Part shown: positions 8,880 to 29,486 of the stretch, piece by piece | How positions within the stretch are numbered: the first letter of the stretch is position 1 | How the letters are laid out: each line of letters begins with the position of its first letter | IMG/VR virus record: IMGVR_UViG_2687453538_000001 | Span: 29,444 to 93,443 of that record | Origin: a virus | Lineage: Duplodnaviria; Caudoviricetes | DNA: 64,000 bases | Reading direction: 5' to 3' (one strand) | The notes under the pieces: generated by a model | Seen by the model: the letters and a program-made list of their open reading frames with translations, nothing else | What the model was told of the DNA's origin: nothing | Databases searched by the model: none | Program-made: the position numbers and the translations under genes

Positions 8880-9124
8880 TGCCCCGTCTTCACCCAGCGG
8901 CGGATACGAAGCTCGCAACCACTGATGAGCGCGACGCCGTTCGCGCAACCGTAATGAGTCGCCCGACGCTTGCAGCCGCAGTGACACCGGCGCCGAGCCT
9001 TGGCTGGCTTCGGCTCCAGGTAGCGGATGTGCCGGCTGCTACTGCCAACTTGCCCCCATCCATCGACCCCGCCGCGCATCGCTGCAGATCGGGCTGCCGG
9101 GGAAAGACTGTTCAAATCGGTCAT
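8876..9124 (-). CDS. Hypothetical Cys-rich protein
   Basis: Overlapping starts/stops with both neighbours. Confidence 0.6.
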   Translation of the reverse strand: MTDLNSLSPAARSAAMRGGVDGWGQVGSSSRHIRYLEPKPAKARRRCHCGCKRRATHYGCANGVALISGCELRIRRWVKTGQ

Positions 9125-10419
9125 TTCGAATCCTCGCTAGTAACAAATTCGGGATGGGTGCTAGAGGCCTTGTCCCCTGCGGCCTGCCCCTGAATCTGTG
9201 GGATTTCGGATAAGGCCTCTGTAAGGCCATGAATGGCACCAAAGCCGATGCCGTCTAACCAGGCGTGCCACTTCTCCAGGGCTACCCTGCGCTGCTGCAT
9301 CGCTTGGGTGTGGATGTAGGTGCTGGCGATCTTGCCCAGTGAGTGGTTCAGCAGCATCTCGCCGATGTGCCCGTCGATACCGAGGTCGGTCCATGTGCTG
9401 CGAGAGACTTTCCGCAGATCGTGGCTGGTCCACTCGCCCCGTCCCAGGTAGGTGAATACAGCGCTGGCCTGGCTCTCGCTCAGGCACCCGCCGCGACGAC
9501 TTGGGAACAGGTACACGCCGTCGTACCCTTCGGCCTGCTGGATTGCCCGGTACCGGGTCAGAAGCGCACAGATCTGGTTGGTCAGCGGCAGCCGGTGCTC
9601 TGTACGGGTCTTGGCATTCGCTGCCGGGATGAACCACTCGCCAGCCGTGACCGACACCTCGCTCCAGCGGGCCTTTCGGGTCTCGCCAATGCGGGTACCG
9701 TGCGCCAGCATCATCAGCGCAAGCATGGCCTTGGCTGGGGTTTCCTCGAAGACCTCGGCCAGCTGCTGCATCACATCAGCCAGGTGCACCGCTCGCAGAC
9801 GGGCCGACTTCGGCAGGATCTTGGCCTTGGTGAAGTCGCTGAAGCGCATCCCGCCCATGGGGTCAGACTCGATCAGTCCCAGGCGCTTGGCTTGCTTGAA
9901 CGCGGTCAGCAGCAGCGCGAACATCTGGCGCAGGTAGGACAGCGACACATCAGCCTGGGCGGGCCACATCAGTTGCTTGTCCAGCGTATCGGCAGTCACG
10001 TCTGCCAAGGGCAGATCATCCAGGCGCGGCTTCAGGTGCTGAGCAATGGCGGATCGTGCGCCGGCCTTGCGCTTCACCGACAGCGAGCGGTCACGAGCCA
10101 TCCGGTCGCCGTACCAGTCCAGCAGCTGACCCACGGAGGCCATACTCGACACCACCAGAGCGGTGGCCGGTTCGCGCAGCAGGCGCTGACGCAGTGCGGG
10201 CAGCTCAGTCAGCACCGTGGCGACGTTCAGCTCTGGCCAGCGGGCGACCGGCACCCATTTCTTGCCGCGCACCAGGTGCCAGGTGGCGCGCTCGCGGTTG
10301 CTCCAGAAGCGCAGGTATAGGCCAGGGTGACGCGGGTCGCGCAGATCGCGCACGGACACGTCGGCGGCCTGGCGGCGCACCTCAGCCTCGCTGAACTTCA
10401 CTTCGCGTGTTGCGCTCAT
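9121..10419 (-). CDS. Tyrosine recombinase in the nin region (not the att-adjacent integrase)
   Basis: HGTRIGE, HDLRK, LLNH...STY catalytic set; arm-binding-like N-terminus. Confidence 0.88.
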   Translation of the reverse strand: MSATREVKFSEAEVRRQAADVSVRDLRDPRHPGLYLRFWSNRERATWHLVRGKKWVPVARWPELNVATVLTELPALRQRLLREPATALVVSSMASVGQLLDWYGDRMARDRSLSVKRKAGARSAIAQHLKPRLDDLPLADVTADTLDKQLMWPAQADVSLSYLRQMFALLLTAFKQAKRLGLIESDPMGGMRFSDFTKAKILPKSARLRAVHLADVMQQLAEVFEETPAKAMLALMMLAHGTRIGETRKARWSEVSVTAGEWFIPAANAKTRTEHRLPLTNQICALLTRYRAIQQAEGYDGVYLFPSRRGGCLSESQASAVFTYLGRGEWTSHDLRKVSRSTWTDLGIDGHIGEMLLNHSLGKIASTYIHTQAMQQRRVALEKWHAWLDGIGFGAIHGLTEALSEIPQIQGQAAGDKASSTHPEFVTSEDSK

Positions 10420-12799: not shown

Positions 12800-12919
12800 G
12801 CTCTGATCTCGTTTGAAGCTGTAGAGAAAGCCGCCCTGCCAGGCGGTTTTTTTTCGCCTACTGTTCAGCCACTGGATGCATGAACAGCGGGGCGGACTCA
12901 CTACTGGCGCAAGGCCGGG

Positions 12920-13144
12920 TCACGCATAATTCTTTTCGTCAGATGCTGGCCGTTGCAGCACAGGACGACTCGGAAACGGACGTACTTCCTCCCCCGTCAA
13001 CGTCCCGTCGTCGTTCTGGATCACAAAGATCACCCGACCAGCCTTCATCGCCTTTGCGATGGCTGGTGCGCTAACGTCAAGCCCCTTGGCGACGGCGGTC
13101 TGGCCGATTCGCTCAACAAGCTCAGGCAGCAGTGTTCGGTTCAT
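12920..13144 (-). CDS. cro: Cro-like repressor
   Basis: GQTAVAKGLDVSAPAIAKA...EEVRPFPS, lambda Cro-like; divergent from cI. Confidence 0.88.
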   Translation of the reverse strand: MNRTLLPELVERIGQTAVAKGLDVSAPAIAKAMKAGRVIFVIQNDDGTLTGEEVRPFPSRPVLQRPASDEKNYA

Positions 13145-13175
13145 GGCATTGCCTCAGTGAAGAATGCTCACGATA

Positions 13176-13239
13176 TTAACCGCCGGTTAGCATTTCTTCA
13201 ACACCGGCGGTTGAGGCAGTCAAATTAACCTCCGGTTAA
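13176..13239. promoter_or_regulatory. OR operators (three sites)
   Basis: TTAACCGCCGGTTAG 13176-13190, ACACCGGCGGTTG 13201-13213, TTAACCTCCGGTTAA 13225-13239. Confidence 0.8.
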
Positions 13240-13248
13240 ATTCCGCGA

Positions 13249-14136
13249 ATGACGAAAAAGAAAGATCTATCCCCAGAACTGAAGGCCGAGTGTGAGGCAG
13301 CGAAAAGGCTGTTCACCCAGAAAAAAAACGCACTTGGCCTGACACAGGCAAAGGTGGCTGAGGCTGCCGACATTTCGCCCGCAGGTGTAGCCATGTACTT
13401 GAATGGCACAAACCCCCTGAATGCGAAGTTTGCCGTCGTGCTGTCCAGGCTCCTTCAAGAGCCCGTGGACCGGTTCAGCCCCCGGCTAGCTGCTGAGCTT
13501 TCACAGATGCAGGGTGCCCAAGTGAAAAGCGCTGACGGCTTAAGGAGCACGGCCGCTGAGAAAGTGCTGGAGATGCTACGTAAGCACGGCGGAAAATCGC
13601 TGGATGCGACGGCTCAGGACAAGATTGCCAAGGCGGTAGCTGACAGTCTTTCCGAAGCATCAGCGCCGTCAACCGGCGCCGCACAGGCCGCTATCATGGT
13701 CATGGCAGGCCATGGAGATATCTCCATCCCGCAATACGATATCCGCGCGGCAATGGGCCATGGCCAGGTGCCAGCCGAGTACAGCGAAGTCATCCGCAAC
13801 GTGGTGATTCGCGAAGAAGTACTGCGCGAGAAAGGCGTGACCTACACCGCCGCCCAGGCCTTGGCGATGATCACCGGCTGGGGTCAGAGCATGGAAGGGA
13901 CGATCAATGACAAGGATCCTGTAATCGTTGATCGCGGAGTTAATGACTACCAAGGTGAAGGCGTTTATGTGCTCACTTGGCACGGGGATCTTCTCATAAA
14001 GCGCGTCCAGCGGATGGATGGGGATCACGTTTGGCTGATATCTGACAACAAAAATTACGAAAAGCAGTCAGCTCGCATCGAAGACGTAACAATACACGCA
14101 AAAGTGCTGCTAGTTTGGAATGCAAGAAAAATCTAG
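13249..14136 (+). CDS. cI: CI repressor (HTH + S24 autopeptidase)
   Basis: LTQAKVAEAADIS HTH, AMG cleavage region, GQSMEGTI, IKR. Confidence 0.93.
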   Translation: MTKKKDLSPELKAECEAAKRLFTQKKNALGLTQAKVAEAADISPAGVAMYLNGTNPLNAKFAVVLSRLLQEPVDRFSPRLAAELSQMQGAQVKSADGLRSTAAEKVLEMLRKHGGKSLDATAQDKIAKAVADSLSEASAPSTGAAQAAIMVMAGHGDISIPQYDIRAAMGHGQVPAEYSEVIRNVVIREEVLREKGVTYTAAQALAMITGWGQSMEGTINDKDPVIVDRGVNDYQGEGVYVLTWHGDLLIKRVQRMDGDHVWLISDNKNYEKQSARIEDVTIHAKVLLVWNARKI

Positions 14137-14160
14137 AGATTAGCCGATAGTTAGGATGCC

Positions 14161-15237
14161 ATGGATAAATTCATTTTTGAGGGACTCTCAATAGAGAGGA
14201 TGATTGCGCATACAATCTTTCCCCGAACCAAGGAAGGCGTGCTGGTGCCGCCCCAACTTTCTGAGGAATTAATCGATCTAGATGTCGATTCTAAAGACTT
14301 GCTCCAGGTGCGCATCACCGATGCACTAGGGAGCAACTCGCACGGGATCGAGATCAACGCAGAAAAGACTGATGCGTCCTCCTTCATGCAAAAATCTGCA
14401 GAAGCTCTAAGGGCCGAAAAAGCACGCTTCATTGAGCTTTCGAGAGTAATCGCAGAGGATTTGGCGGATGCACAGACCAATCCGAAATGGCCGGGTGGCG
14501 TCCTAATTGTCCTGTCCGGGCGTGTTGGCAATAACCAACACCCCTTCCTTGCGGCGATTAAGGCAGAAACCGACAAAGGCTTTAATATCGTTGAAAGAAA
14601 CGGCTCCGTCAGCTTAACCCTAATAAAAAAGATGTTGCTATCTCAAACTCAGCGTCTTTACAAGATAGGGGTCAGCGTCGAGATTTCCTATACTGCTCCG
14701 GTAGCAAGCATTTATCAGCCCGAAAACTACAGGTTTTTCCTGTTCGACCACCTGCTAACGACAACCGAAACGAAAGCAGCTGCAGCGTATTTCTACAACG
14801 CCTTCCTTGGCATGAACATCCTCAAATCTTCTAAGTTCCAGACTAGGAAATTCTACGAAGAAACAAAAACCTATATTTCAGGTTTAGCTCTGGAGCAACC
14901 GGAGAAGAGTGAGCTGCTCGAGGCATTGCGTTCCGAGCTTAGAAGCAACAAAGGAACCATGTCCGTACCAGCTTTCGCCGAGGAACACTTGCCAGCTGAT
15001 TCAAGACAGCATTACATCGACACCATGGCTGCAAAAGGGCTTCCGGATACAGCCATGGTCAAGGATCTTGCATACATCAAAGCTAAACTGCGAAGACCCC
15101 GCCGAGTAGATTTCAGCACGGGTGTAAAAATACAGGTACCCGCTGATTTGAATTTCCAAGATCATGTGCAGACCTTGCGGCAGGAAGGCGGATATACAGA
15201 CGTCCGCATCAAAGGCGTAGTTGAGAGTCGAGAGTAA
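14161..15237 (+). CDS. NA37/YejK(NdpA)-like nucleoid-associated family protein
   Basis: IERMIAH N-terminus, PGGVLIV, IKAE, LLSQTQRLYKIG, YFYNAFLG pattern recognised by eye. Confidence 0.7.
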   Translation: MDKFIFEGLSIERMIAHTIFPRTKEGVLVPPQLSEELIDLDVDSKDLLQVRITDALGSNSHGIEINAEKTDASSFMQKSAEALRAEKARFIELSRVIAEDLADAQTNPKWPGGVLIVLSGRVGNNQHPFLAAIKAETDKGFNIVERNGSVSLTLIKKMLLSQTQRLYKIGVSVEISYTAPVASIYQPENYRFFLFDHLLTTTETKAAAAYFYNAFLGMNILKSSKFQTRKFYEETKTYISGLALEQPEKSELLEALRSELRSNKGTMSVPAFAEEHLPADSRQHYIDTMAAKGLPDTAMVKDLAYIKAKLRRPRRVDFSTGVKIQVPADLNFQDHVQTLRQEGGYTDVRIKGVVESRE

Positions 15238-16202
15238 TGAATATTGAGCAGTTCAAAGACTATCTTCTGGCTGCTCAGCCCAGCCTTAATTTGTGGGGAA
15301 GTTTTGTAGAAAAAAACGTCAAGAAAATATCTAAAACCAATAGCATAAATCTCCAGATACTTTCATCTAGAGTCAAAGAAATTGATTCAGCAATAGGCAA
15401 ACTGACTCGAAAATCGTATAACAACCCCCTGAAAGACATGACCGACCTAGTTGGTGTCCGAGCTGTTTGCCTCTTGTCGCCCGATGTAGAAAAACTATGC
15501 CAAGCAATGATGCTACCCGTTTGGGACATACAGAAATCAAGAGACACCTCAAAAGAGTATGAGGACGCACCGGATAAATTTGGATATCAGTCCCATCATT
15601 TCGAGATACGCCCCAAATGCGATATACAAATCGCAGGCACTACGATCACTCCCGACATATGTTGTGAGTTACAGATCAGAACATTGATGCAGCACGCCTA
15701 TGCTGAGGTGGTTCACGATAGTATTTATAAAAGCTCTTGGAAAGTGCCTAGCCGCGCGGTAAGATTCGTATCCAGCAGTGCTGCATTAATCGAAACGGCG
15801 GACCACCTTTTTTGTGAAACCATGAACATTTTAGAGTCAGAATCGAAAGTCCGAGGCGAGCTGCTTGAGGAGCTCACGGACATCTACGATTCCAAGGTGG
15901 GGATTTCTAAGTTTAAAGATCAGAAATTTAACATGCTTGTTCTTGATCAGTTATCCGGCGTTATCCACCAAGACACACCGGATAAAATTCGCCACCTTCT
16001 AAATGAGCGCAGCTTCATTCAAGAAAGGGTGAAGTCCCGTCTAGACTCCAATGCATTTTGGTCTCAGCCAGTATCGATACTTGCATACCTCTTAGCTGTC
16101 GAGCACCCCTCTTCACTTAAAGAGCTCTGGCCCTATGCAGAGTCAGAAGACTCACTTGAACTCATCTATAGCGACTTAGGTAAAAAGTACCATAGCCATT
16201 AA
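15237..16202 (+). CDS. RelA/SpoT-domain small alarmone synthetase (SAS) with C-terminal extension
   Basis: RVKxxxSxxxK, DLVGVR, GYQSHH, ELQIRT, HAYAEVVHDSIYK. Confidence 0.9.
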   Translation: MNIEQFKDYLLAAQPSLNLWGSFVEKNVKKISKTNSINLQILSSRVKEIDSAIGKLTRKSYNNPLKDMTDLVGVRAVCLLSPDVEKLCQAMMLPVWDIQKSRDTSKEYEDAPDKFGYQSHHFEIRPKCDIQIAGTTITPDICCELQIRTLMQHAYAEVVHDSIYKSSWKVPSRAVRFVSSSAALIETADHLFCETMNILESESKVRGELLEELTDIYDSKVGISKFKDQKFNMLVLDQLSGVIHQDTPDKIRHLLNERSFIQERVKSRLDSNAFWSQPVSILAYLLAVEHPSSLKELWPYAESEDSLELIYSDLGKKYHSH

Positions 16203-16216
16203 TTAGCGCACGCCAC

Positions 16217-16552
16217 TCAGAAAGGCGCCTTCTCCTCTTCATGACGGACCAGGTCAAGGTCCACTTCCCTCTCGATCACCCGATCGTCATCCGTAGCAGC
16301 ATCCCACTGCAGAATCACCGACCCGTCATCACAGAACGTCATGTCCAGGCCGTCAGTTTCCGAAAGCAGCTCCATGATTCGTACCCAGTCCTGATCGCTA
16401 TCCGTATCCAGTTGATGAATCAGAACCTTCCTTCCGAACTGGGCCAGCGGCGAATTGATCATTGCTGAGATCCTCAGCCCCAGCTTTTCCAATCCCGTCA
16501 GCGCCTCGCCAGGCGCCGACATCGCTAATCCTTGTGCCGATCCCATTTTCAT
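16217..16552 (-). CDS. DUF1654-like protein, SOS-box preceded
   Basis: LEKLGLRISAMINSP...DDGSVILQW; GGAGG RBS. Confidence 0.7.
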   Translation of the reverse strand: MKMGSAQGLAMSAPGEALTGLEKLGLRISAMINSPLAQFGRKVLIHQLDTDSDQDWVRIMELLSETDGLDMTFCDDGSVILQWDAATDDDRVIEREVDLDLVRHEEEKAPF

Positions 16553-16562
16553 ACCTCCTATA

Positions 16563-16578
16563 CTGTATATCCGTACAG
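16563..16578. promoter_or_regulatory. LexA (SOS) box
   Basis: CTGTATATCCGTACAG fits CTGT-N8-ACAG. Confidence 0.8.
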
Positions 16579-16615
16579 ATTCAGGCAATCTTAGCGCGCC
16601 TTTTCAGAAAAATAA

Positions 16616-16657
16616 TTAACCGGCGGTATTGACGTAATGGTTACCGGCGGTTAATTT
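16616..16657 (+). promoter_or_regulatory. PL promoter with two OL operators
   Basis: TTGACG-17-TAATTT overlapped by TTAACCGGCGGTATT and GTTACCGGCGGTTAA, matching the OR sites. Confidence 0.82.
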
Positions 16658-16912
16658 TGCTGCCAGCCGGATAGATACTGGCCGCAGCAAAGGCAGCGAT
16701 GGACAGGCCTCAACAGTCCAGAGGGGTGGCAACTGCCCCGGGTGTGCAGGGTAAAGCACCGAGATCAGTTATCCGGCGGGAAGGTCCGCGGTCGGAGTCA
16801 ACAACCAGAAGAGTGCCGCGCAACCGACTCCAGTAGAGGGCCGCGGCTGAAGGTTTCACTGGCTGGCCTTCGAGGTAGAGGGCCAGACGGGAAATCAGCC
16901 GGAGAAAACACC

Positions 16913-17587
16913 ATGGCCGTAAACATCAGCAAATTAACCATCACGACTCCCGTAGCCACTTCCTCAACCAACCATGTTGCACTTGAGCTAAGCGGAGCAG
17001 AAGCGATCGCGCAGTTCCCGGAAATTGTTACTGCCTTGCCCGATGGCTCTATTCGCTTCACTGCGCCGACTAAAGGCGCCTCGAGCAAAAGCACACGTCG
17101 CACTCGTTGTGAGTGGTCTGAGGCCACCAACTGGACCCTGGCCAGCGCGGCAAATCACCGAAATCACCAGCAGATGGCGCTTACCAAGGTCAACTTTGCT
17201 CAGAAGGTCGTGATCTCGCAGATGCATGTTAGAGGCGATGACAGCCCACCGGTGAAGGTGTTCTGGAACAAGGGCAACATCACGATGGGCTTTCGCACCA
17301 CCTACAACCAAGCCACCCCGGTGAACACCACCGTACTCAAGGGTGTGCCGCTCGGGGCAAAGTTCACCGTTGCCATCGACGTTACGACACATGGCCTGGT
17401 GACTGTTTCAGCCCAGTGCAACGGTGTGTCCGGTTCTTCAGGAACCCTGCAGCTCGACGACACCTGGGACTCTCGCCTGTTCGAGTTCCATGGCGGCGTC
17501 TACAACCAGGTCGATTACACCGACTCGACTCCCGCCGCGGATGGCTCGATCTGCGTCATCAGCAGTCTCTCGCTGACCCATAGCTGA
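16913..17587 (+). CDS. Polysaccharide lyase family 7 (alginate lyase-like) protein
   Basis: RTRCEWSE, QMH, FEFHGGVYNQ as variants of RSELRE, QIH, YFKAGxYxQ; GGAG RBS. Confidence 0.78.
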   Translation: MAVNISKLTITTPVATSSTNHVALELSGAEAIAQFPEIVTALPDGSIRFTAPTKGASSKSTRRTRCEWSEATNWTLASAANHRNHQQMALTKVNFAQKVVISQMHVRGDDSPPVKVFWNKGNITMGFRTTYNQATPVNTTVLKGVPLGAKFTVAIDVTTHGLVTVSAQCNGVSGSSGTLQLDDTWDSRLFEFHGGVYNQVDYTDSTPAADGSICVISSLSLTHS

Positions 17588-19803: not shown

Positions 19804-20640
19804 TTACCATTTTATAAGCCCACAGTTCCTCAAGTGAGCATCGCCTACTCGCTTGGGGCAGTTTGTGAATAGCGAGTATTGCTCCATCAATTCCTTCAGT
19901 CTTTGCCCGTCGTCACTTATACCATAAAGCAACACACACTCTACTTCGGCCGGCGTAAGCAGAGACTTGATAATCAACACGTATCGCTCTTTCAATACCG
20001 CGTCATCTAAATCACACCCATCGACGTATGACAGTAACTGCTCTAAAATAGTGAAGAATTTTAGTCCATTCTCTTGAGCAGCCGCCAACATTTTGTTCGC
20101 GTGCTCCCTAAACAAAAATTCTCTCTCTCGCCTAGTTAAATTACCTTTTGACTCGTTGAAAACCCAGTCAATCCTATCAACGTTGTATTTAAAAGAAAGC
20201 CTCTGCGCCACAGCAATCCCAGTGAACACTCTCTGTTCTTCATAGAGGCTCATTGTTTCTAGCGCTTTAGAGTACAGATCAATCAAACCAAAAAATACAG
20301 ACTCAAAGCTTTGCTGCTTGAATATTTTCGTCTGTTCCTTCTGCATCGAGATAGCTGCACTTGCCTCTGAGCGAGCCTCCTTAACCTCCTCAGACTGATA
20401 TTTTAGGCTTTTCACAACAGCAATCAAAGCCATGAAGCTTAGTACAGGATTCAGCACGCCACCCACATAATCACCAAACTGCCCCCACACTTCTTTACTT
20501 GAAGAAAACCAACCAAAAAAATTTACAACGTACGCACTAATTACAACAACAACAAAAACTCCAGCACATGTAATCATCATCAAGCTAAAGTCTAACTTTA
20601 GCTTTGTAAACGCCGCTTTGAGACTTTGATGTATATCCAT
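19804..20640 (-). CDS. Putative abortive-infection membrane protein (putAbiC-like)
   Basis: Two TM segments, WGQFGDYVGGVLNP, FESVFFGLI; AT-rich and antisense to the operon. Confidence 0.7.
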   Translation of the reverse strand: MDIHQSLKAAFTKLKLDFSLMMITCAGVFVVVVISAYVVNFFGWFSSSKEVWGQFGDYVGGVLNPVLSFMALIAVVKSLKYQSEEVKEARSEASAAISMQKEQTKIFKQQSFESVFFGLIDLYSKALETMSLYEEQRVFTGIAVAQRLSFKYNVDRIDWVFNESKGNLTRREREFLFREHANKMLAAAQENGLKFFTILEQLLSYVDGCDLDDAVLKERYVLIIKSLLTPAEVECVLLYGISDDGQRLKELMEQYSLFTNCPKRVGDAHLRNCGLIKW

Positions 20641-20746
20641 CTTTTCCGCCTAACCCTTAGCTTTCCGCCTTAAACCAATCATCCTAAACCAAATTGCCAC
20701 CATGCCGCATCCGGCCACGGAGGGCGGCGCATTCATGGAGATCACC

Positions 20747-21133
20747 ATGAGTACATTCGCAGTGTTCGGCATGACCGCCGCAGCAGCGCTTGCCGATGCC
20801 CGGAAGAAAACCAAGACCACCAAGCCCAGCGGGAAAGCTGGCTGCCCCCCCTTGGACCTTACCCTGGCCGAGTGGGAAGAGGCGGTGCAGCGCAACGTCG
20901 AGGCAATCATGGTCGGCGAGAAAGTCAAGCAGCTCAGCGTCCTCTACGACACCCCGCAGCACGCGCAGCAGTTCATCGAGCTCGCCAAGCGATCGGGCGC
21001 CTACCGCGACCTGAAGATTCGCTGCAAGGCCGCCTTGCTCGACGAAAAGGGCAAAAAGATCCTCAGCCCCAAGACCAAGATGCCCGTTATCGGCTGGATG
21101 GACTGGAATGCTGAAATGCATAAGGCAGCCTGA
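20747..21133 (+). CDS. Hypothetical phage protein
   Basis: GGAG RBS, MSTFAVFGMT. Confidence 0.7.
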   Translation: MSTFAVFGMTAAAALADARKKTKTTKPSGKAGCPPLDLTLAEWEEAVQRNVEAIMVGEKVKQLSVLYDTPQHAQQFIELAKRSGAYRDLKIRCKAALLDEKGKKILSPKTKMPVIGWMDWNAEMHKAA

Positions 21134-21159
21134 TCGCTTGATTAGATTCCCAGATGGGG

Positions 21160-21867
21160 CTAGGCATCCCCCGCCTGATTGGCTTGAGCAGTATCTATTG
21201 CCACCCGCTCAACCTCAAATATCAGAGAGTTAGCAAGCTCAATGACAGCGTGCACTTCAGCAACGGTTGGCTGCACGTCATGATGCGCATAGTTATTACG
21301 GTAAACGCCGTAAAAACCACTCAGTAAATTGCGGTAAGCGGTCTTCCTTGGGCCATCCAAATTTGTGAGAACTGATCCACCGCCGAATATAGTATTAACA
21401 AGCTCATCGCCATCTATATTCTGCGCAACTAAAAATCTTTGCCTAAGATGACTAGAAAGAATTGGGAAAACTTGCCTTATCGCGGCCGCATGGTGCCCGC
21501 CATCCAGTAGAGGTATGACGCCCTCCCTCAAGCGCCCGTGCAGGCGCACGGCCTGATCTTCCAAGGCGAATAGCGAGGCGAACCCACTGGGCATATCACT
21601 GTAGATAATGTCCTTGATATCGCTGAAGCATGAATCTTTGAATCCCTGATTCAATCTCAACTCTATGAACCAGAGGTGACGACCGATATTGCCGAAAGCC
21701 CTTGGTTCAACGCCATTTAGCGTCAACAGCCTGTCCACCTCGACCTGCAGGGAAGTGTATTTTTCATAAAGCTCTGGAGGCTCCGAAAACTCCCAGCTCC
21801 GATGCATATCGAGTGCAATCTCATATGCTAATTGATATTGCCGAATCGCCGCCGTCAAAGCGCTCAT
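21160..21867 (-). CDS. TIGR02391 (Ymh)-like HEPN-type protein
   Basis: IDGDELVNTIF...GFYGVYRNNYAH (RxxxxH); lower GC, antisense; start uncertain. Confidence 0.7.
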   Translation of the reverse strand: MSALTAAIRQYQLAYEIALDMHRSWEFSEPPELYEKYTSLQVEVDRLLTLNGVEPRAFGNIGRHLWFIELRLNQGFKDSCFSDIKDIIYSDMPSGFASLFALEDQAVRLHGRLREGVIPLLDGGHHAAAIRQVFPILSSHLRQRFLVAQNIDGDELVNTIFGGGSVLTNLDGPRKTAYRNLLSGFYGVYRNNYAHHDVQPTVAEVHAVIELANSLIFEVERVAIDTAQANQAGDA

Positions 21868-21921
21868 GTCGTATCCCTGTGATTTGAATCCTGCTATCAG
21901 CATATCCGCGAAGGTATCCCC

Positions 21922-22533
21922 ATGCCCACAGAAAACCGATCCAGCAACACAGAGATGGTCAGCGTGCCGCGCGAGCATGAACTGAAAATTCGACAGACCC
22001 CGCTGGCTGACTTGCTCAGCGGCCTCAAGACCGGCGAGGTCCGGGATTGCTCGGATCGTAATTTCGCCGTGGGCGACACGGTTCTGCTCCGCGAGATCGA
22101 TGATGCCCTCGACTACACCGGCACGGTTCTACGCCGGACTATCACCCATGTCCAAAAGCACTATGGCCTGCCGGATCACTTGTGCGTGCTGAGCTACGGC
22201 CAGCCAGCCCAGCACCAGGGCGAGCCGGTGGGCGAAGTCGTGGTATTCGGCAAGGGTCTGCATGAGATTGCTTGGGCTGCTGGGCGCATGCCAAGGCTCG
22301 GTGCCAAGCTCTACACCCACCCAGCGCCAGCAGATCCTGGCGAGCCTGAGCGGCTGCGAGCTGCTTTGAAGTTCTACGCCGACCGGGACCACTTCGCTGA
22401 AGACATTGGCAACGAATGGGACAGCGTGAGCGGCGAGCCCGCGAACATCCTCTGGCACGAACATGAAGCTTGGTTTGTGGAGGATGGCTCGATTGCCAGG
22501 GCTGCGTTGTCGGAAAACTCCGAGGCGGGCTAA
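21922..22533 (+). CDS. DUF3850/ASCH-like domain mosaic protein
   Basis: HELKI...SGLKTGEVR..DRNFAVGDTVLLRE. Confidence 0.75.
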   Translation: MPTENRSSNTEMVSVPREHELKIRQTPLADLLSGLKTGEVRDCSDRNFAVGDTVLLREIDDALDYTGTVLRRTITHVQKHYGLPDHLCVLSYGQPAQHQGEPVGEVVVFGKGLHEIAWAAGRMPRLGAKLYTHPAPADPGEPERLRAALKFYADRDHFAEDIGNEWDSVSGEPANILWHEHEAWFVEDGSIARAALSENSEAG

Positions 22534-25319: not shown

Positions 25320-26369
25320 ATGCGCCCAAGGAAGACCGAGAATCGCGACCTGCCACCAGGCATGTATCGTCGCAAAAGACAAAAAGCCAATGGCAAGGTG
25401 TGGGAGGCTCTGTACTACAGGGACAAGTCGGGCAAGGACATTTTCCTTGGCAGTGACCTGGTGAAGGCCAAGCTGATGTGGGCAGAGCTCGAAGCCAAGT
25501 CGGTACCGAAAGAACTGACAACGATGAAAGGGATCTTCGACGAGTACCTGTTGAAGATCATCCCAGGCAAGGCCGCCAGGACCCAGAAAGACAACATCTA
25601 CGAGCTTAAGCAACTGCGCACTGTGTTCGATTCGGCGCCGATCGATGCAATCACGCCGGCCATGATCGCGCAATACCGCGACTCAAGGTCGGCCAAAACT
25701 AGAGCGAACAGGGAAATCGCACTGCTCTCGCACGTTTTCAACACCGCAAGGGAATGGGGGCTCACCACCCGGGACAACCCGTGCCTGGGCGTGAGGAAGA
25801 ACAAGGAGAAACCGCGCGACTTCTATGCCAACGAAGCGGTGTGGCAGGCGGTATATGAGGAGGCCCCACAGGAGCTTAAGGATGCGATGGACCTGGCGTA
25901 CCTGACCGGCCAGCGGCCATCGGACGTTCTGTCCATGCGAAAGGACGATATGGACGGGATCTACCTGCAGGTCAGCCAAGGCAAGACCGGCAAGCGACTG
26001 AGGATCGTCCTGGAGGTGGACGGAGCGAAGAACAGTCTTGGGCTGCTGCTGGAGCGGATTATGCGCAGGACCAGCGAGCACCTGTCGCCGTTCTTCATCA
26101 TCAACGAGCACGGCAAGCGCATGAGCTGGCCGATGTTGCGCAACCGGTGGGCGGACGCCCGGGAGGCCGCCAGGGTGAAAGCTGACGTCGAGAAGAAGCC
26201 AGACCTAGCAAACCGAATCGCCCAGTTCCAGTTCCGAGATATCCGACCGAAGGCGGCCTCGGAGATAAACGATCTGGGCGAGGCAAGCGTGCTGCTGGGG
26301 CACTCCAAAGAGGGAATCACGGAGCGTGTCTATCGCCGTGTTGGGGCTATCGCGAAGCCCTCGAAATAG
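25320..26369 (+). CDS. int: Prophage 1 integrase (tyrosine recombinase)
   Basis: TGQR, FRDIRPKA, LLGH...VY; adjacent to att. Confidence 0.92.
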   Translation: MRPRKTENRDLPPGMYRRKRQKANGKVWEALYYRDKSGKDIFLGSDLVKAKLMWAELEAKSVPKELTTMKGIFDEYLLKIIPGKAARTQKDNIYELKQLRTVFDSAPIDAITPAMIAQYRDSRSAKTRANREIALLSHVFNTAREWGLTTRDNPCLGVRKNKEKPRDFYANEAVWQAVYEEAPQELKDAMDLAYLTGQRPSDVLSMRKDDMDGIYLQVSQGKTGKRLRIVLEVDGAKNSLGLLLERIMRRTSEHLSPFFIINEHGKRMSWPMLRNRWADAREAARVKADVEKKPDLANRIAQFQFRDIRPKAASEINDLGEASVLLGHSKEGITERVYRRVGAIAKPSK

Positions 26370-27284: not shown

Positions 27285-29486
27285 CTATACCGATGCGGAA
27301 ATTACGAGCCTATTGGCGTCAGACCCATTCGCTGAACGACCTTGGGTTTGAGATATTTCAACCGTGAGAGAGCCACCATTAGGGATTCTCCTGACCTGGA
27401 GGATTGCAGATGGGGACCCGCCGTAGATGATTGCTTGATCCACTTGAACGCCGTTCAGCATCACCCGGAACACTGTCTCGTCAGCCGCTACCCCACTGGA
27501 AAGTGACAGAGAAACCCTGACGATCACATTCCGCATATCAGATTTCGCTACGAAGACACCGGTGCCGGTGTTGAACCATTCTGTTTGCAAGTTCAGCAAA
27601 CCATCGTTCCTAACATCGCTTGGATTGAGGGTGGTAGGCTTGAAAACGCTGAAGGAAGTCGAGAAGGCTTGAGAGGATTGACGCGCATCAAGCGCGCAGT
27701 AGTCGTCATAACCCTGCGGATGAAGCACAGCAACACACTGAAAGAAGTCCGTAGGAAGATTGGCAAAAGCAATTGGCGAGACATAGGACGGGGCCCCTAT
27801 CGAATAGATGATCTTATTTGATACGTGCCCATACAGTCGGTTCGTACCATCAATAGAGACGAACTGCCTGCAGTCGGAGCCAAGATTGATGAAGAACGCC
27901 GGGTTAGATGTGAGGTAGCCATTGCAGCCCTGCATCGTCAGAACATTTGACGAAACATCCTGTGCGACATAAGCGCCAACAGCACCAGCCTCCAGTAAAT
28001 TGCCAGTCTCTATGTGTGTGCCGTTCATGAAAAATTTACCGAACGAGTTCACATACTCGATATCGCCAGAAACCGGTTGAAGCTCCGACTTGAAGACGGG
28101 ATACAGCGGCGTGAAGTTGGCGACACAACCCCCGGTGGTGTACACCAGGCATCCCCAGTTGTAGGCCACGATGGCCGGGAGGCTTTCCCAAAATGCTTTC
28201 CGGGGATCCCCCACTGGCAAGGTGTTGATAGTCGAATACAGAAGGCAGTCATCGAAGTGCAGGATGGTGTTTTGCCCGTAGCAATGGAATGCCGTCACGC
28301 ACCACACCGTTTCGCAGGAAGACAAGATATTCTCGCTGTCACCCAGCATGCCAAGGCTTGGCGTCGTCGCCCATACCGGATCGCCGAAGGTCATGGCATT
28401 CCTGGCCTTCCAGAACGAACAACCAAACAGGTGGTTGTGTCGCCCACGAATCCACAGCGCCTCTCGGTAGGTCACTGAGTAGTCCATGTCAAACGTGAGG
28501 TTGTACAGCCTGTTGAAGTTGGTGAGCTTCATCACATAGTTTGCTGTAGCAGCCACATCGAACGGACGGATCACGCCGCCTGCGCAGTAAATATCGATCT
28601 TCGACCCCACCTCAACAGAGGTCAGGTGGTAGATCCCGGTTGGGATCATGATCGCGATGCGAGCGAAGTCAGGCCCTGGAGTCGTCCCGATCAGCGGAAT
28701 TGCCAGGTTGAATGCGGCCTGAAATGCTGGCGTCCAGTCCCACGTGTCTGGATCGTTCGCGTCGGGCTTCACGGTAATCAGATTTGCAAACTCCCAAACC
28801 GATATAGCCTGAGCATTCAACATCTGCCCAGCCGAGATAATCGAGCTGCGCAATGGCGATCGTTTCCAACCAACAAGTGCCGCGCCTTTTGCAGCATTCG
28901 TGGGACTAGACAAATCTTGGACCGTATATGGCAGGCTGTCAGGCCCCATATACAGAACGTTTGCCGCGTTGTTTATTGGACCTTGCCCAGTTGCCAAAAT
29001 CTCTGCGACAAAATCAGCAACGTCCTTCCAGTTTGGAACCGAAGTATCCACCCGCTGCGACGAAGCAATGTTGACGATGCCATTGCCTTTACCTCGATAA
29101 AAGCCTGCACCATCCACATCCGAAGCACCGAGGCGCAAAGATCGATTCGTGTAGCGCATCAGCTGCTTCAAGGCTTGCCAGATACGGTCAAAGTCGTTGT
29201 TAACGGTATTGGCAAGGAAGTCACCATTCTCCTGGTAGTCGTTCAGTCGCTCGAAAGGGACCTCAAGCGTGAACAGGATCTGCGCATTCAGGGGCGGAGC
29301 AGTGGTGAAGATAACGCTGCTGGTTGGGTTTTCCACCCCGGACTGGGTGTAACCCGAGGTGAGCTCTACCCCATCAACGTAGACCGCAAGGTCAGACGCC
29401 TGAATCACCAGGAAGGGTACGGTGAAGATTGTGCTCACGCCGTTGCCGACGTATCGCTGCTCTGTTGGTCCTGCTGGAACTGCCAT
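27285..29486 (-). CDS. Tailspike/tail fibre with probable beta-helix domain
   Basis: YVGNGVSTIFTVPF...DFDRIW N-terminal anchor; DWTPAFQAA...IPTGIY beta-helix entry. Confidence 0.85.
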   Translation of the reverse strand: MAVPAGPTEQRYVGNGVSTIFTVPFLVIQASDLAVYVDGVELTSGYTQSGVENPTSSVIFTTAPPLNAQILFTLEVPFERLNDYQENGDFLANTVNNDFDRIWQALKQLMRYTNRSLRLGASDVDGAGFYRGKGNGIVNIASSQRVDTSVPNWKDVADFVAEILATGQGPINNAANVLYMGPDSLPYTVQDLSSPTNAAKGAALVGWKRSPLRSSIISAGQMLNAQAISVWEFANLITVKPDANDPDTWDWTPAFQAAFNLAIPLIGTTPGPDFARIAIMIPTGIYHLTSVEVGSKIDIYCAGGVIRPFDVAATANYVMKLTNFNRLYNLTFDMDYSVTYREALWIRGRHNHLFGCSFWKARNAMTFGDPVWATTPSLGMLGDSENILSSCETVWCVTAFHCYGQNTILHFDDCLLYSTINTLPVGDPRKAFWESLPAIVAYNWGCLVYTTGGCVANFTPLYPVFKSELQPVSGDIEYVNSFGKFFMNGTHIETGNLLEAGAVGAYVAQDVSSNVLTMQGCNGYLTSNPAFFINLGSDCRQFVSIDGTNRLYGHVSNKIIYSIGAPSYVSPIAFANLPTDFFQCVAVLHPQGYDDYCALDARQSSQAFSTSFSVFKPTTLNPSDVRNDGLLNLQTEWFNTGTGVFVAKSDMRNVIVRVSLSLSSGVAADETVFRVMLNGVQVDQAIIYGGSPSAILQVRRIPNGGSLTVEISQTQGRSANGSDANRLVISASV

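Follow-up and report, generated by a model that had tools for sequence, protein, structure and literature searches.

The two genes that follow the cI repressor gene in the provirus studied here quite probably form a type I PANGU anti-phage module (Pag1A/Pag1B), an exchangeable cassette among the cargo of a lambdoid prophage that is probably from Pseudomonas. The window, i.e. the whole stretch of DNA analyzed, comprises 64,000 nucleotides (positions 29,444 to 93,443) of IMG/VR provirus record IMGVR_UViG_2687453538_000001 (93,443 bases), and window positions are used throughout. The first gene of the pair encodes a nucleoid-associated protein (NAP) of the NA37/YejK family, and the second a synthetase-only RelA/SpoT homolog. 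The pair and the features that delimit it are:

12920..13144, - strand: Cro-like gene, divergent from cI, marking the immunity region (PF09048 Cro, E 1.5e-19)
13249..14136, + strand: cI-like repressor gene (HTH_3 and Peptidase_S24 domains, Pfam)
14137..16216, + strand: cargo cassette of low G+C content (GC), from the cI stop to the DUF1654 stop (edges of flank homology, GC)
14161..15237, + strand: pag1A-like gene, encoding a 358-residue NA37/YejK-family NAP, 40.2 kDa calculated (PF04245, phrog_1974)
15237..16202, + strand: pag1B-like gene, encoding a 321-residue synthetase-only RelA/SpoT homolog, 36.7 kDa calculated (PF04607, phrog_32462)
16217..16552, - strand: convergent DUF1654 gene, conserved and bounding the cargo slot on its right (PF07867, E 2.4e-21)

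The cI stop codon (TAG, 14134-14136) is separated from the next ATG (14161) by a spacer of 24 nt, which includes an AGGA at 14153-14156. The stop codon of the NA37 gene (TAA, 15235-15237) shares one nucleotide with the start codon of the synthetase gene (ATG, 15237-15239), forming a TAATG overlap. GC is 0.42-0.50 across the pair vs 0.57-0.66 on both sides, 10-20 points below the flanks. A terminator scan, which returned 7 sites vs 5.0 expected, gave no terminator-like site on the + strand between cI and the NA37 gene, and its sole + strand site (15269-15285, with a 5-pair stem) lies within the synthetase gene. The initial annotation, made from the letters of the window, had described an AT-rich, TAATG-coupled pair starting 24 bp after the cI stop with no visible terminator, and its observation is correct in every detail, down to the exact coordinates. 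At the far edge of the cassette, the ATG of the DUF1654 gene (16552) is preceded by AGGAGG, and the longest open reading frame (ORF) extends to 16588.

The first protein, which the initial annotation had likened to the NA37 family, matches PF04245 over residues 15-329 with 53.3 bits (E 3.6e-14), above the curated cutoff of 24.6, and also matches phrog_1974 (E 1.3e-58). Its homologs number 140 at E <= 0.001 (the best 120 of the 140 are listed), and no PDB chain resembles it at E <= 0.01. The second protein matches PF04607 (RelA_SpoT, E 1.3e-17, residues 44-167) as its sole Pfam family, with no hydrolase domain in its 321 residues in the Pfam scan, and phrog_32462 (E 2.8e-85); full-length PHROGs families exist for both proteins of the pair. 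The full set of synthetase motifs that had been read from the sequence is in place, with RVK at 45, DLVGVR at 70, GYQSHH at 116 and ELQIRT at 144. The catalytic residues are retained in 122-124 of 124 non-redundant family members, a set also used for co-variation (147 adjacent pairs, from which 7 with a hidden Markov model score < 200 bits were removed, the remaining 140 being reduced to 124 at 97% identity). The AlphaFold2 model of the synthetase (mean predicted local distance difference test score, pLDDT, 86.5) consists of a catalytic α/β domain, a long helix and a helical domain, the latter two with pLDDT mostly 83-95:

15237..15746, + strand: synthetase (toxSYNTH) domain, residues 1-170 (R45, K47, D70, R75, Y117, S119, H121, E144, Q146, R148)
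15750..15896, + strand: single long α-helical linker, residues 172-220 (DSSP on the AlphaFold2 model)
15921..16175, + strand: C-terminal all-helical domain, residues 229-313, presumed to bind the NAP ('DMK'-like; AlphaFold2 model)

Foldseek ranks RelQ (5dec, TM-score on target 0.79) and RelP first among solved structures (TM-scores up to 0.80), and synthetase residues ~1-200 match these two best, in sequence as well as in structure. CapRel (7ztb) ranks below them (E 2e-7, TM-score 0.41-0.43, root-mean-square deviation 16) and superposes poorly outside the core. The Foldseek alignments span only ~200 columns, with no solved-structure match to the C-terminal domain. The extension of about 120 residues that had been noted as unexplained is real: it amounts to ~150 residues past the Pfam domain, or ~100-120 residues past the RelQ-like core, and it is helical. 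RelQ and RelP differ in lacking this C-terminal helical domain, a NAP partner and a mobile-element context, and are only 18-24% identical to the window synthetase, which scores 44.9 against NCBIfam YjbM, far under the cutoff of 320. Y117 of GYQSHH is retained in 124/124 pairs and aligns with the GYRSYH of RelQ; from this alignment and general knowledge we take it to be the catalytic G-loop tyrosine. RelQ is a homotetramer. A tetramer has likewise been reported for Pag1B (10.64898/2026.04.06.716658).

PANGU was described in a bioRxiv preprint of 6 April 2026, not peer-reviewed (10.64898/2026.04.06.716658), as two-gene operons encoding a YejK-like NAP and an effector; in type I these are Pag1A and Pag1B, a toxSAS of the GRel subfamily. 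In the systems assayed (F. futtsuensis, P. aeruginosa, E. coli), protection against T4 or Bas34 amounts to 3-4 logs, and defense requires both genes, neither of which is toxic, alone or together. Pag1B begins with a toxSYNTH domain, continues through a helical linker and ends in an acidic C-terminal domain ('DMK'), a DNA mimic of unknown fold, which Pag1A binds with nanomolar affinity; the Pag1A2:Pag1B complex was solved by cryo-EM (electron cryomicroscopy). By itself, Pag1B is an inactive tetramer. Pag1A is required for its activity in vitro, and a NAP that no longer binds DNA renders the pair toxic. Once activated, Pag1B turns ATP plus GTP/GDP/GMP into AMP plus (pp)pGpp, with a pppGpp product and no tRNA labeling reported for two homologs. 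Pag1A sits non-specifically on long DNA and departs from the nucleoid upon T4 infection, and T4 escapers carry mutations in denA (endonuclease II). The catalytic G-loop tyrosine is Y129 in the F. futtsuensis Pag1B and Y155 in CapRel (10.64898/2026.04.06.716658).

The window pair agrees with this description in each structural feature that could be clearly compared. The preprint searched for NAPs of IPR007358/PF04245 with >=300 aa and E < 1e-10, encoded at an intergenic distance < 40 bp from the effector (10.64898/2026.04.06.716658); here the NAP has 358 aa and a PF04245 E-value of 3.6e-14, and the genes overlap by 1 nt. The effector begins with a toxSYNTH domain, lacks a hydrolase domain and continues in the AlphaFold2 model with a helical linker and a C-terminal domain without PDB match, and Y117 occupies the position of the G-loop tyrosine. 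The calculated masses (40.2/36.7 kDa) are close to those of the P. aeruginosa pair (40.6/37.5 kDa), and both the described systems and the relatives of the window pair are spread over several phyla, with SLATT genes occasionally adjoining the pairs in the preprint and in some of our loci. The E. coli PANGU construct is described as 'NA37 and gRel' (10.64898/2026.04.06.716658), a subfamily that the available excerpt of Atkinson 2011 gives as solely gamma-proteobacterial. The initial annotation had proposed the pairing as an undescribed system. This claim fails because the pair matches one already named, in April 2026; literature searches gave no other published name for a pairing of NA37 and synthetase genes, and the accessible part of the DefensePredictor paper mentions a newly validated YejK domain (PMC13092281). 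A difference lies in the setting: PANGU was described from defense islands and assayed from plasmids, and the word 'prophage' is absent from the main text of the preprint (10.64898/2026.04.06.716658), whereas here a lambdoid prophage carries the pair immediately after its cI gene.

The pairing exceeds chance, because it is conserved across loci. Among matched genome stretches, 593 of 600 encode a relative of the synthetase, and 75 of the best 80 of these 593 have a co-directional NA37 ORF as the immediate upstream neighbor. In three of the five misses the contig ends at the synthetase; the other two (L065, Burkholderia, and L075, Xanthobacter) encode a synthetase of the family with room upstream and genuinely no NA37 gene, and are perhaps orphan or re-partnered effectors. 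The pair is present in 71 of the best 80 viral-contig loci, the nine misses being one contig edge and eight matches of 107-123 bits that belong to a different synthetase family. The NAP and synthetase homolog lists have many contigs in common, and, going by record titles, family members occur in alpha-, beta- and gamma-proteobacteria, Verrucomicrobiota, Planctomycetota, Bacillota, Deinococcota, Bacteroidota, Spirochaetota and others. The 70 upstream neighbors of viral pairs that were scanned (the window's own counted) include 7 S24 repressors and 6 lysozymes, as well as integrases, methyltransferases and SLATT/DUF4231 proteins; these neighbors are varied, and the pair is therefore mobile cargo.

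Among 50,697 deposited phage genomes, none encodes a protein closely related to the synthetase (7 matches, all weak, with < 33% identity and <=59% coverage), compared with at least 71 IMG/VR provirus copies of the pair, and the module seems limited to temperate elements that are uncultivated or integrated. An E. coli operon annotated as 'nucleoid-associated protein' and 'GTP pyrophosphokinase' encodes proteins 44% and 42% identical to those of the window over their full length. At the DNA level, a distant search (query L020) matched the E. coli pair in 2 of 5,426 complete genomes, and a near-DNA search of E. coli genomes with another query (L090) gave no match. One E. coli copy (L725, NZ_CP036202.1; L162 5772-7858) lies in a P2-like prophage behind a small helix-turn-helix (HTH) gene, between an ogr-like gene and gpD. 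The idea that this copy occupies the known P2 hotspot was dropped, as the relevant part of Rousset et al. 2022 places that hotspot between gpA and gpQ (PMC9122126).

Several points weigh against the assignment to type I PANGU. It was made by the published description and not by comparison with the sequences of the tested Pag1A/Pag1B or of GRel, and the mechanism comes from a single preprint that is not peer-reviewed. The function proposed for the window locus is carried over from homologs, the locus being known from its genes alone. The C-terminal region of the synthetase is just mildly acidic: residues 200-321 have a net charge of -6 and an isoelectric point of 5.3, calculated from sequence only (family median -6, range -11 to +1, 37 sequences). 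PADLOC 2.0.0 has no model for the pair, and its PDC-S33 match is partial, aligning residues 26-177, the catalytic core, to profile positions 53-201 of 349 (68.9 bits). Pairwise distances of the NAP and the synthetase co-vary (r = 0.877 over 124 pairs, with 0/999 permutations as high), which is not proof of binding because adjacent genes share descent. A scan for σ70-like promoters in 12800-16950 gave 0 vs 3.4 expected, and is uninformative in that it missed the repressor's own promoters too.

Three other explanations were considered, each less likely than a type I PANGU module. The first keeps a two-part defense but changes its chemistry, so that the synthetase would pyrophosphorylate tRNA 3'-ends (as CapRel/FaRel2) or make (pp)pApp (as FaRel/Tas1) instead of (pp)pGpp. 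Both reactions are known among toxSAS enzymes, and identity between the window synthetase and the single annotated homolog compared does not exceed 42%. The ranking of RelQ and RelP, makers of (p)ppGpp, before CapRel makes alarmone synthesis a better fit than tRNA modification, and for two homologs pppGpp and no tRNA labeling are reported (10.64898/2026.04.06.716658). The initial annotation had allowed for tRNA pyrophosphorylation or (p)ppApp as the output, and for the assayed homologs this is not supported by the same report. We consider such a chemistry improbable here.

Less probable again is a classical toxSAS toxin-antitoxin pair, in which the synthetase would be toxic by itself and the NA37 protein would be an antitoxin removed or titrated during infection; an upstream partner and translational coupling are the usual layout of such pairs. 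The partner here is a 358-residue NA37 protein and not a small or fused antitoxin of the CapRel type, and, to our knowledge, a strongly conserved protein of this size from a DNA-binding family is unlike the known toxSAS antitoxins. Five toxSAS subfamilies do act as toxin-antitoxin toxins, according to the portion available of Jimmy et al. 2020 (PMC7229694). The homologous NA37 and GRel genes, however, are non-toxic alone or together, the NAP is needed for enzyme activity, and it is the DNA-binding-dead NAP that makes the pair toxic (10.64898/2026.04.06.716658). CapRel(SJ46), from a Salmonella prophage, is a toxSAS toxin fused to its antitoxin that inhibits itself in cis, responds to a capsid protein and modifies tRNA (PMC9712102; 10.64898/2026.04.06.716658). 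It resembles the window synthetase as a prophage-borne abortive-infection effector of toxSAS type with a regulatory C-terminal domain and a common catalytic fold. It is a single protein, whereas the window encodes a separate NAP partner, and it fits the model less well than RelQ; the C-terminal domain here has no match. The abortive-infection idea of the initial annotation is thus retained in part: a DNA-associated partner that senses infection and controls the synthetase agrees with the PANGU homologs and with a defense slot, and the antitoxin role offered for the same partner does not, as the homologs are non-toxic and their NAP is an activator.

The weakest alternative is a role other than defense, in which the two prophage-encoded proteins would adjust host physiology or the choice between lysis and lysogeny. 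It could appeal to the co-orientation of the pair with cI and to the many promoters affected by (p)ppGpp, but is very improbable given that other occupants of the same slot match defense-system models and that, as a mobile unit of two genes, the pair is also found away from prophages and across phyla. Its homologs, moreover, protect against T4 and Bas34 (10.64898/2026.04.06.716658).

In related prophages, the place of the window pair is empty or taken by other genes. A sister prophage (L163) has 93% DNA identity to the window in both flanks, with blastn homology ending at 14129 (the cI stop) and resuming at 16212 (the DUF1654 stop). Two others (L164 and L168) give the same cassette edges (stopping at 14129-14135, resuming at 16212-16217), and contigs of relatives in two sequencing runs diverge at 16217. 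In the best 80 of 228 viral-contig relatives of the window cI, a convergent DUF1654 gene follows cI in 76, and none of the 80 carries the NA37/synthetase pair. The cI-DUF1654 interval in these 76 loci is <130 nt in 26, 130-600 nt in 3, 600-1300 nt in 16, 1300-2300 nt in 22 and above that in 9. In the 50 slots of >=300 nt, 111 ORFs form 82 clusters, mostly co-oriented with cI and with GC below the flank. Two more distant prophages (L083 and L084, with a cI 38% identical) carry a 67%-identical pair in the same order of cI, pair and DUF1654.

Among the 50 of 82 cluster representatives that were scanned (those >=130 aa), PADLOC matches include IetA, IetS, 'beta' and 'cll' (2 members each), PDC-M53A/B, HEC-04, PDC-S42, PD-Lambda-2_C, NsnB, AriA and AbiLi, and Pfam matches include Peptidase_S8, HicB, a HipA-like kinase, DUF3037, SNase and others. 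By their names, 'beta' and 'cll' call to mind the gop-beta-cII of satellite P4, shown to be anti-phage by Rousset et al. 2022 (PMC9122126). Judged from its gene content, the place behind the repressor that the pair occupies in this prophage group appears to be a defense hotspot. On balance we lean towards the broader view that the cI-DUF1654 interval is an uncatalogued defense hotspot of lambdoid prophages, probably of Pseudomonas, with cargo read together with the repressor and type I PANGU as one interchangeable cassette among many.

In 7/80 sister prophages the sole occupant of the slot is a protein of 669-686 aa that carries HATPase_c_3 (GHKL ATPase) at its N terminus (L221:5572-7629, also L164, L171, L213, L217, L218 and L219). 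It has no PADLOC match at E <= 1e-5 and is a candidate for an uncharacterized single-gene defense cargo.

The cassette starts 24 nt past the cI stop, is co-oriented with cI and is separated from it by no terminator-like site, from which we infer that it is read from the repressor transcript in lysogens; the cI gene is the probable source of a transcript reading into the pair. In a sequencing run recorded as RNA (X2, share 0.07), assembled contigs cover parts of cI and DUF1654 and none covers 14161-16202; these data are contigs and so carry no information on transcription of the pair. In phage lambda, rexAB, two exclusion genes that are expressed in lysogens and encode a sensor and a membrane channel, lie directly downstream of cI on the same strand. 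The likeness is one of position only, as rexAB has no sequence or mechanistic relation to the window pair.

In a lysogen, the pair would be read with the cI transcript, in the position of rexAB. If the locus works as its PANGU homologs do, the NAP dimer would sit on long chromosomal DNA while the synthetase stays idle as an inactive tetramer, until a superinfecting phage degrades the host chromosome and frees the NAP dimer. The freed dimer would then bind the C-terminal domain of the synthetase in a 2:1 complex, which would turn ATP and GTP/GDP/GMP into AMP and (pp)pGpp, and the (pp)pGpp would halt transcription and translation and abort the infection. The lysogen would in this way be shielded from superinfection by phages that destroy host DNA. 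Lytic growth of the prophage itself would be no trigger if, like lambda, it keeps the chromosome intact.

The surroundings have a lambdoid layout. Leftwards on the minus strand lie genes for the portal, large terminase, IstB/DnaC-like loader, O-like replication protein and Cro, and rightwards of cI on the plus strand lie the pair, an alginate lyase gene and a ParB-HTH gene, beyond which are putAbiC and Hypoth_Ymh genes (-) and then a lambda-type integrase gene (25320-26369, +). The closest named homologs (95% and 83% identity) come from Pseudomonas, which makes a Pseudomonas the probable host. The Alginate_lyase2 gene (16910-17587, +, E 8e-45) is unusual cargo for the early-left region and has relatives in L083, L163, L207 and L227. 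A second gene of the Phage_integrase family (9121-10419, -, 431 aa, E 4e-20) lies between the replication and late genes. A second low-GC patch (0.49 over 20001-22000) holds two minus-strand genes (19804-20640 and 21160-21978), one with putAbiC (PF16872, E 1.9e-9) and one with Hypoth_Ymh (PF09509); these and neighboring genes have no PADLOC match, and the patch may be further accessory or defense cargo of the same prophage.

Upstream of the DUF1654 gene, a CTGT-N8-ACAG palindrome (CTGTATATCCGTACAG, 16563-16578) lies 11-26 nt from the ATG (16552). It is presumably of the LexA-box type, and its position suggests that the DUF1654 gene may be SOS-controlled. The motif occurs 2 times in the window vs 0.87 expected, a count that 28/100 shuffles reach and that is not significant.

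The system itself is no longer new, and its genomic context is modestly new and well delimited. That the system was deduced from raw sequence, though published only months before, speaks for the sequence-reading approach. The locus supplies a natural setting for PANGU, i.e. a cassette with exact edges just after a prophage repressor gene, whose slot is empty or otherwise defense-filled in sister prophages, and is a testable case of lysogen-expressed PANGU. A further question is how a prophage that is being induced copes with a sensor of DNA destruction that it carries itself. The well-delimited hotspot is a place to look for further defense systems: if it is what it appears to be, slot cassettes without a match in defense libraries, such as the 686-aa HATPase_c_3 protein, would be candidates for new lysogen-expressed anti-phage systems. 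Temperate phages would then spread PANGU, and what allows a temperate phage to carry a detector of host-DNA destruction would be solely that the chromosome is spared when the phage itself grows lytically.

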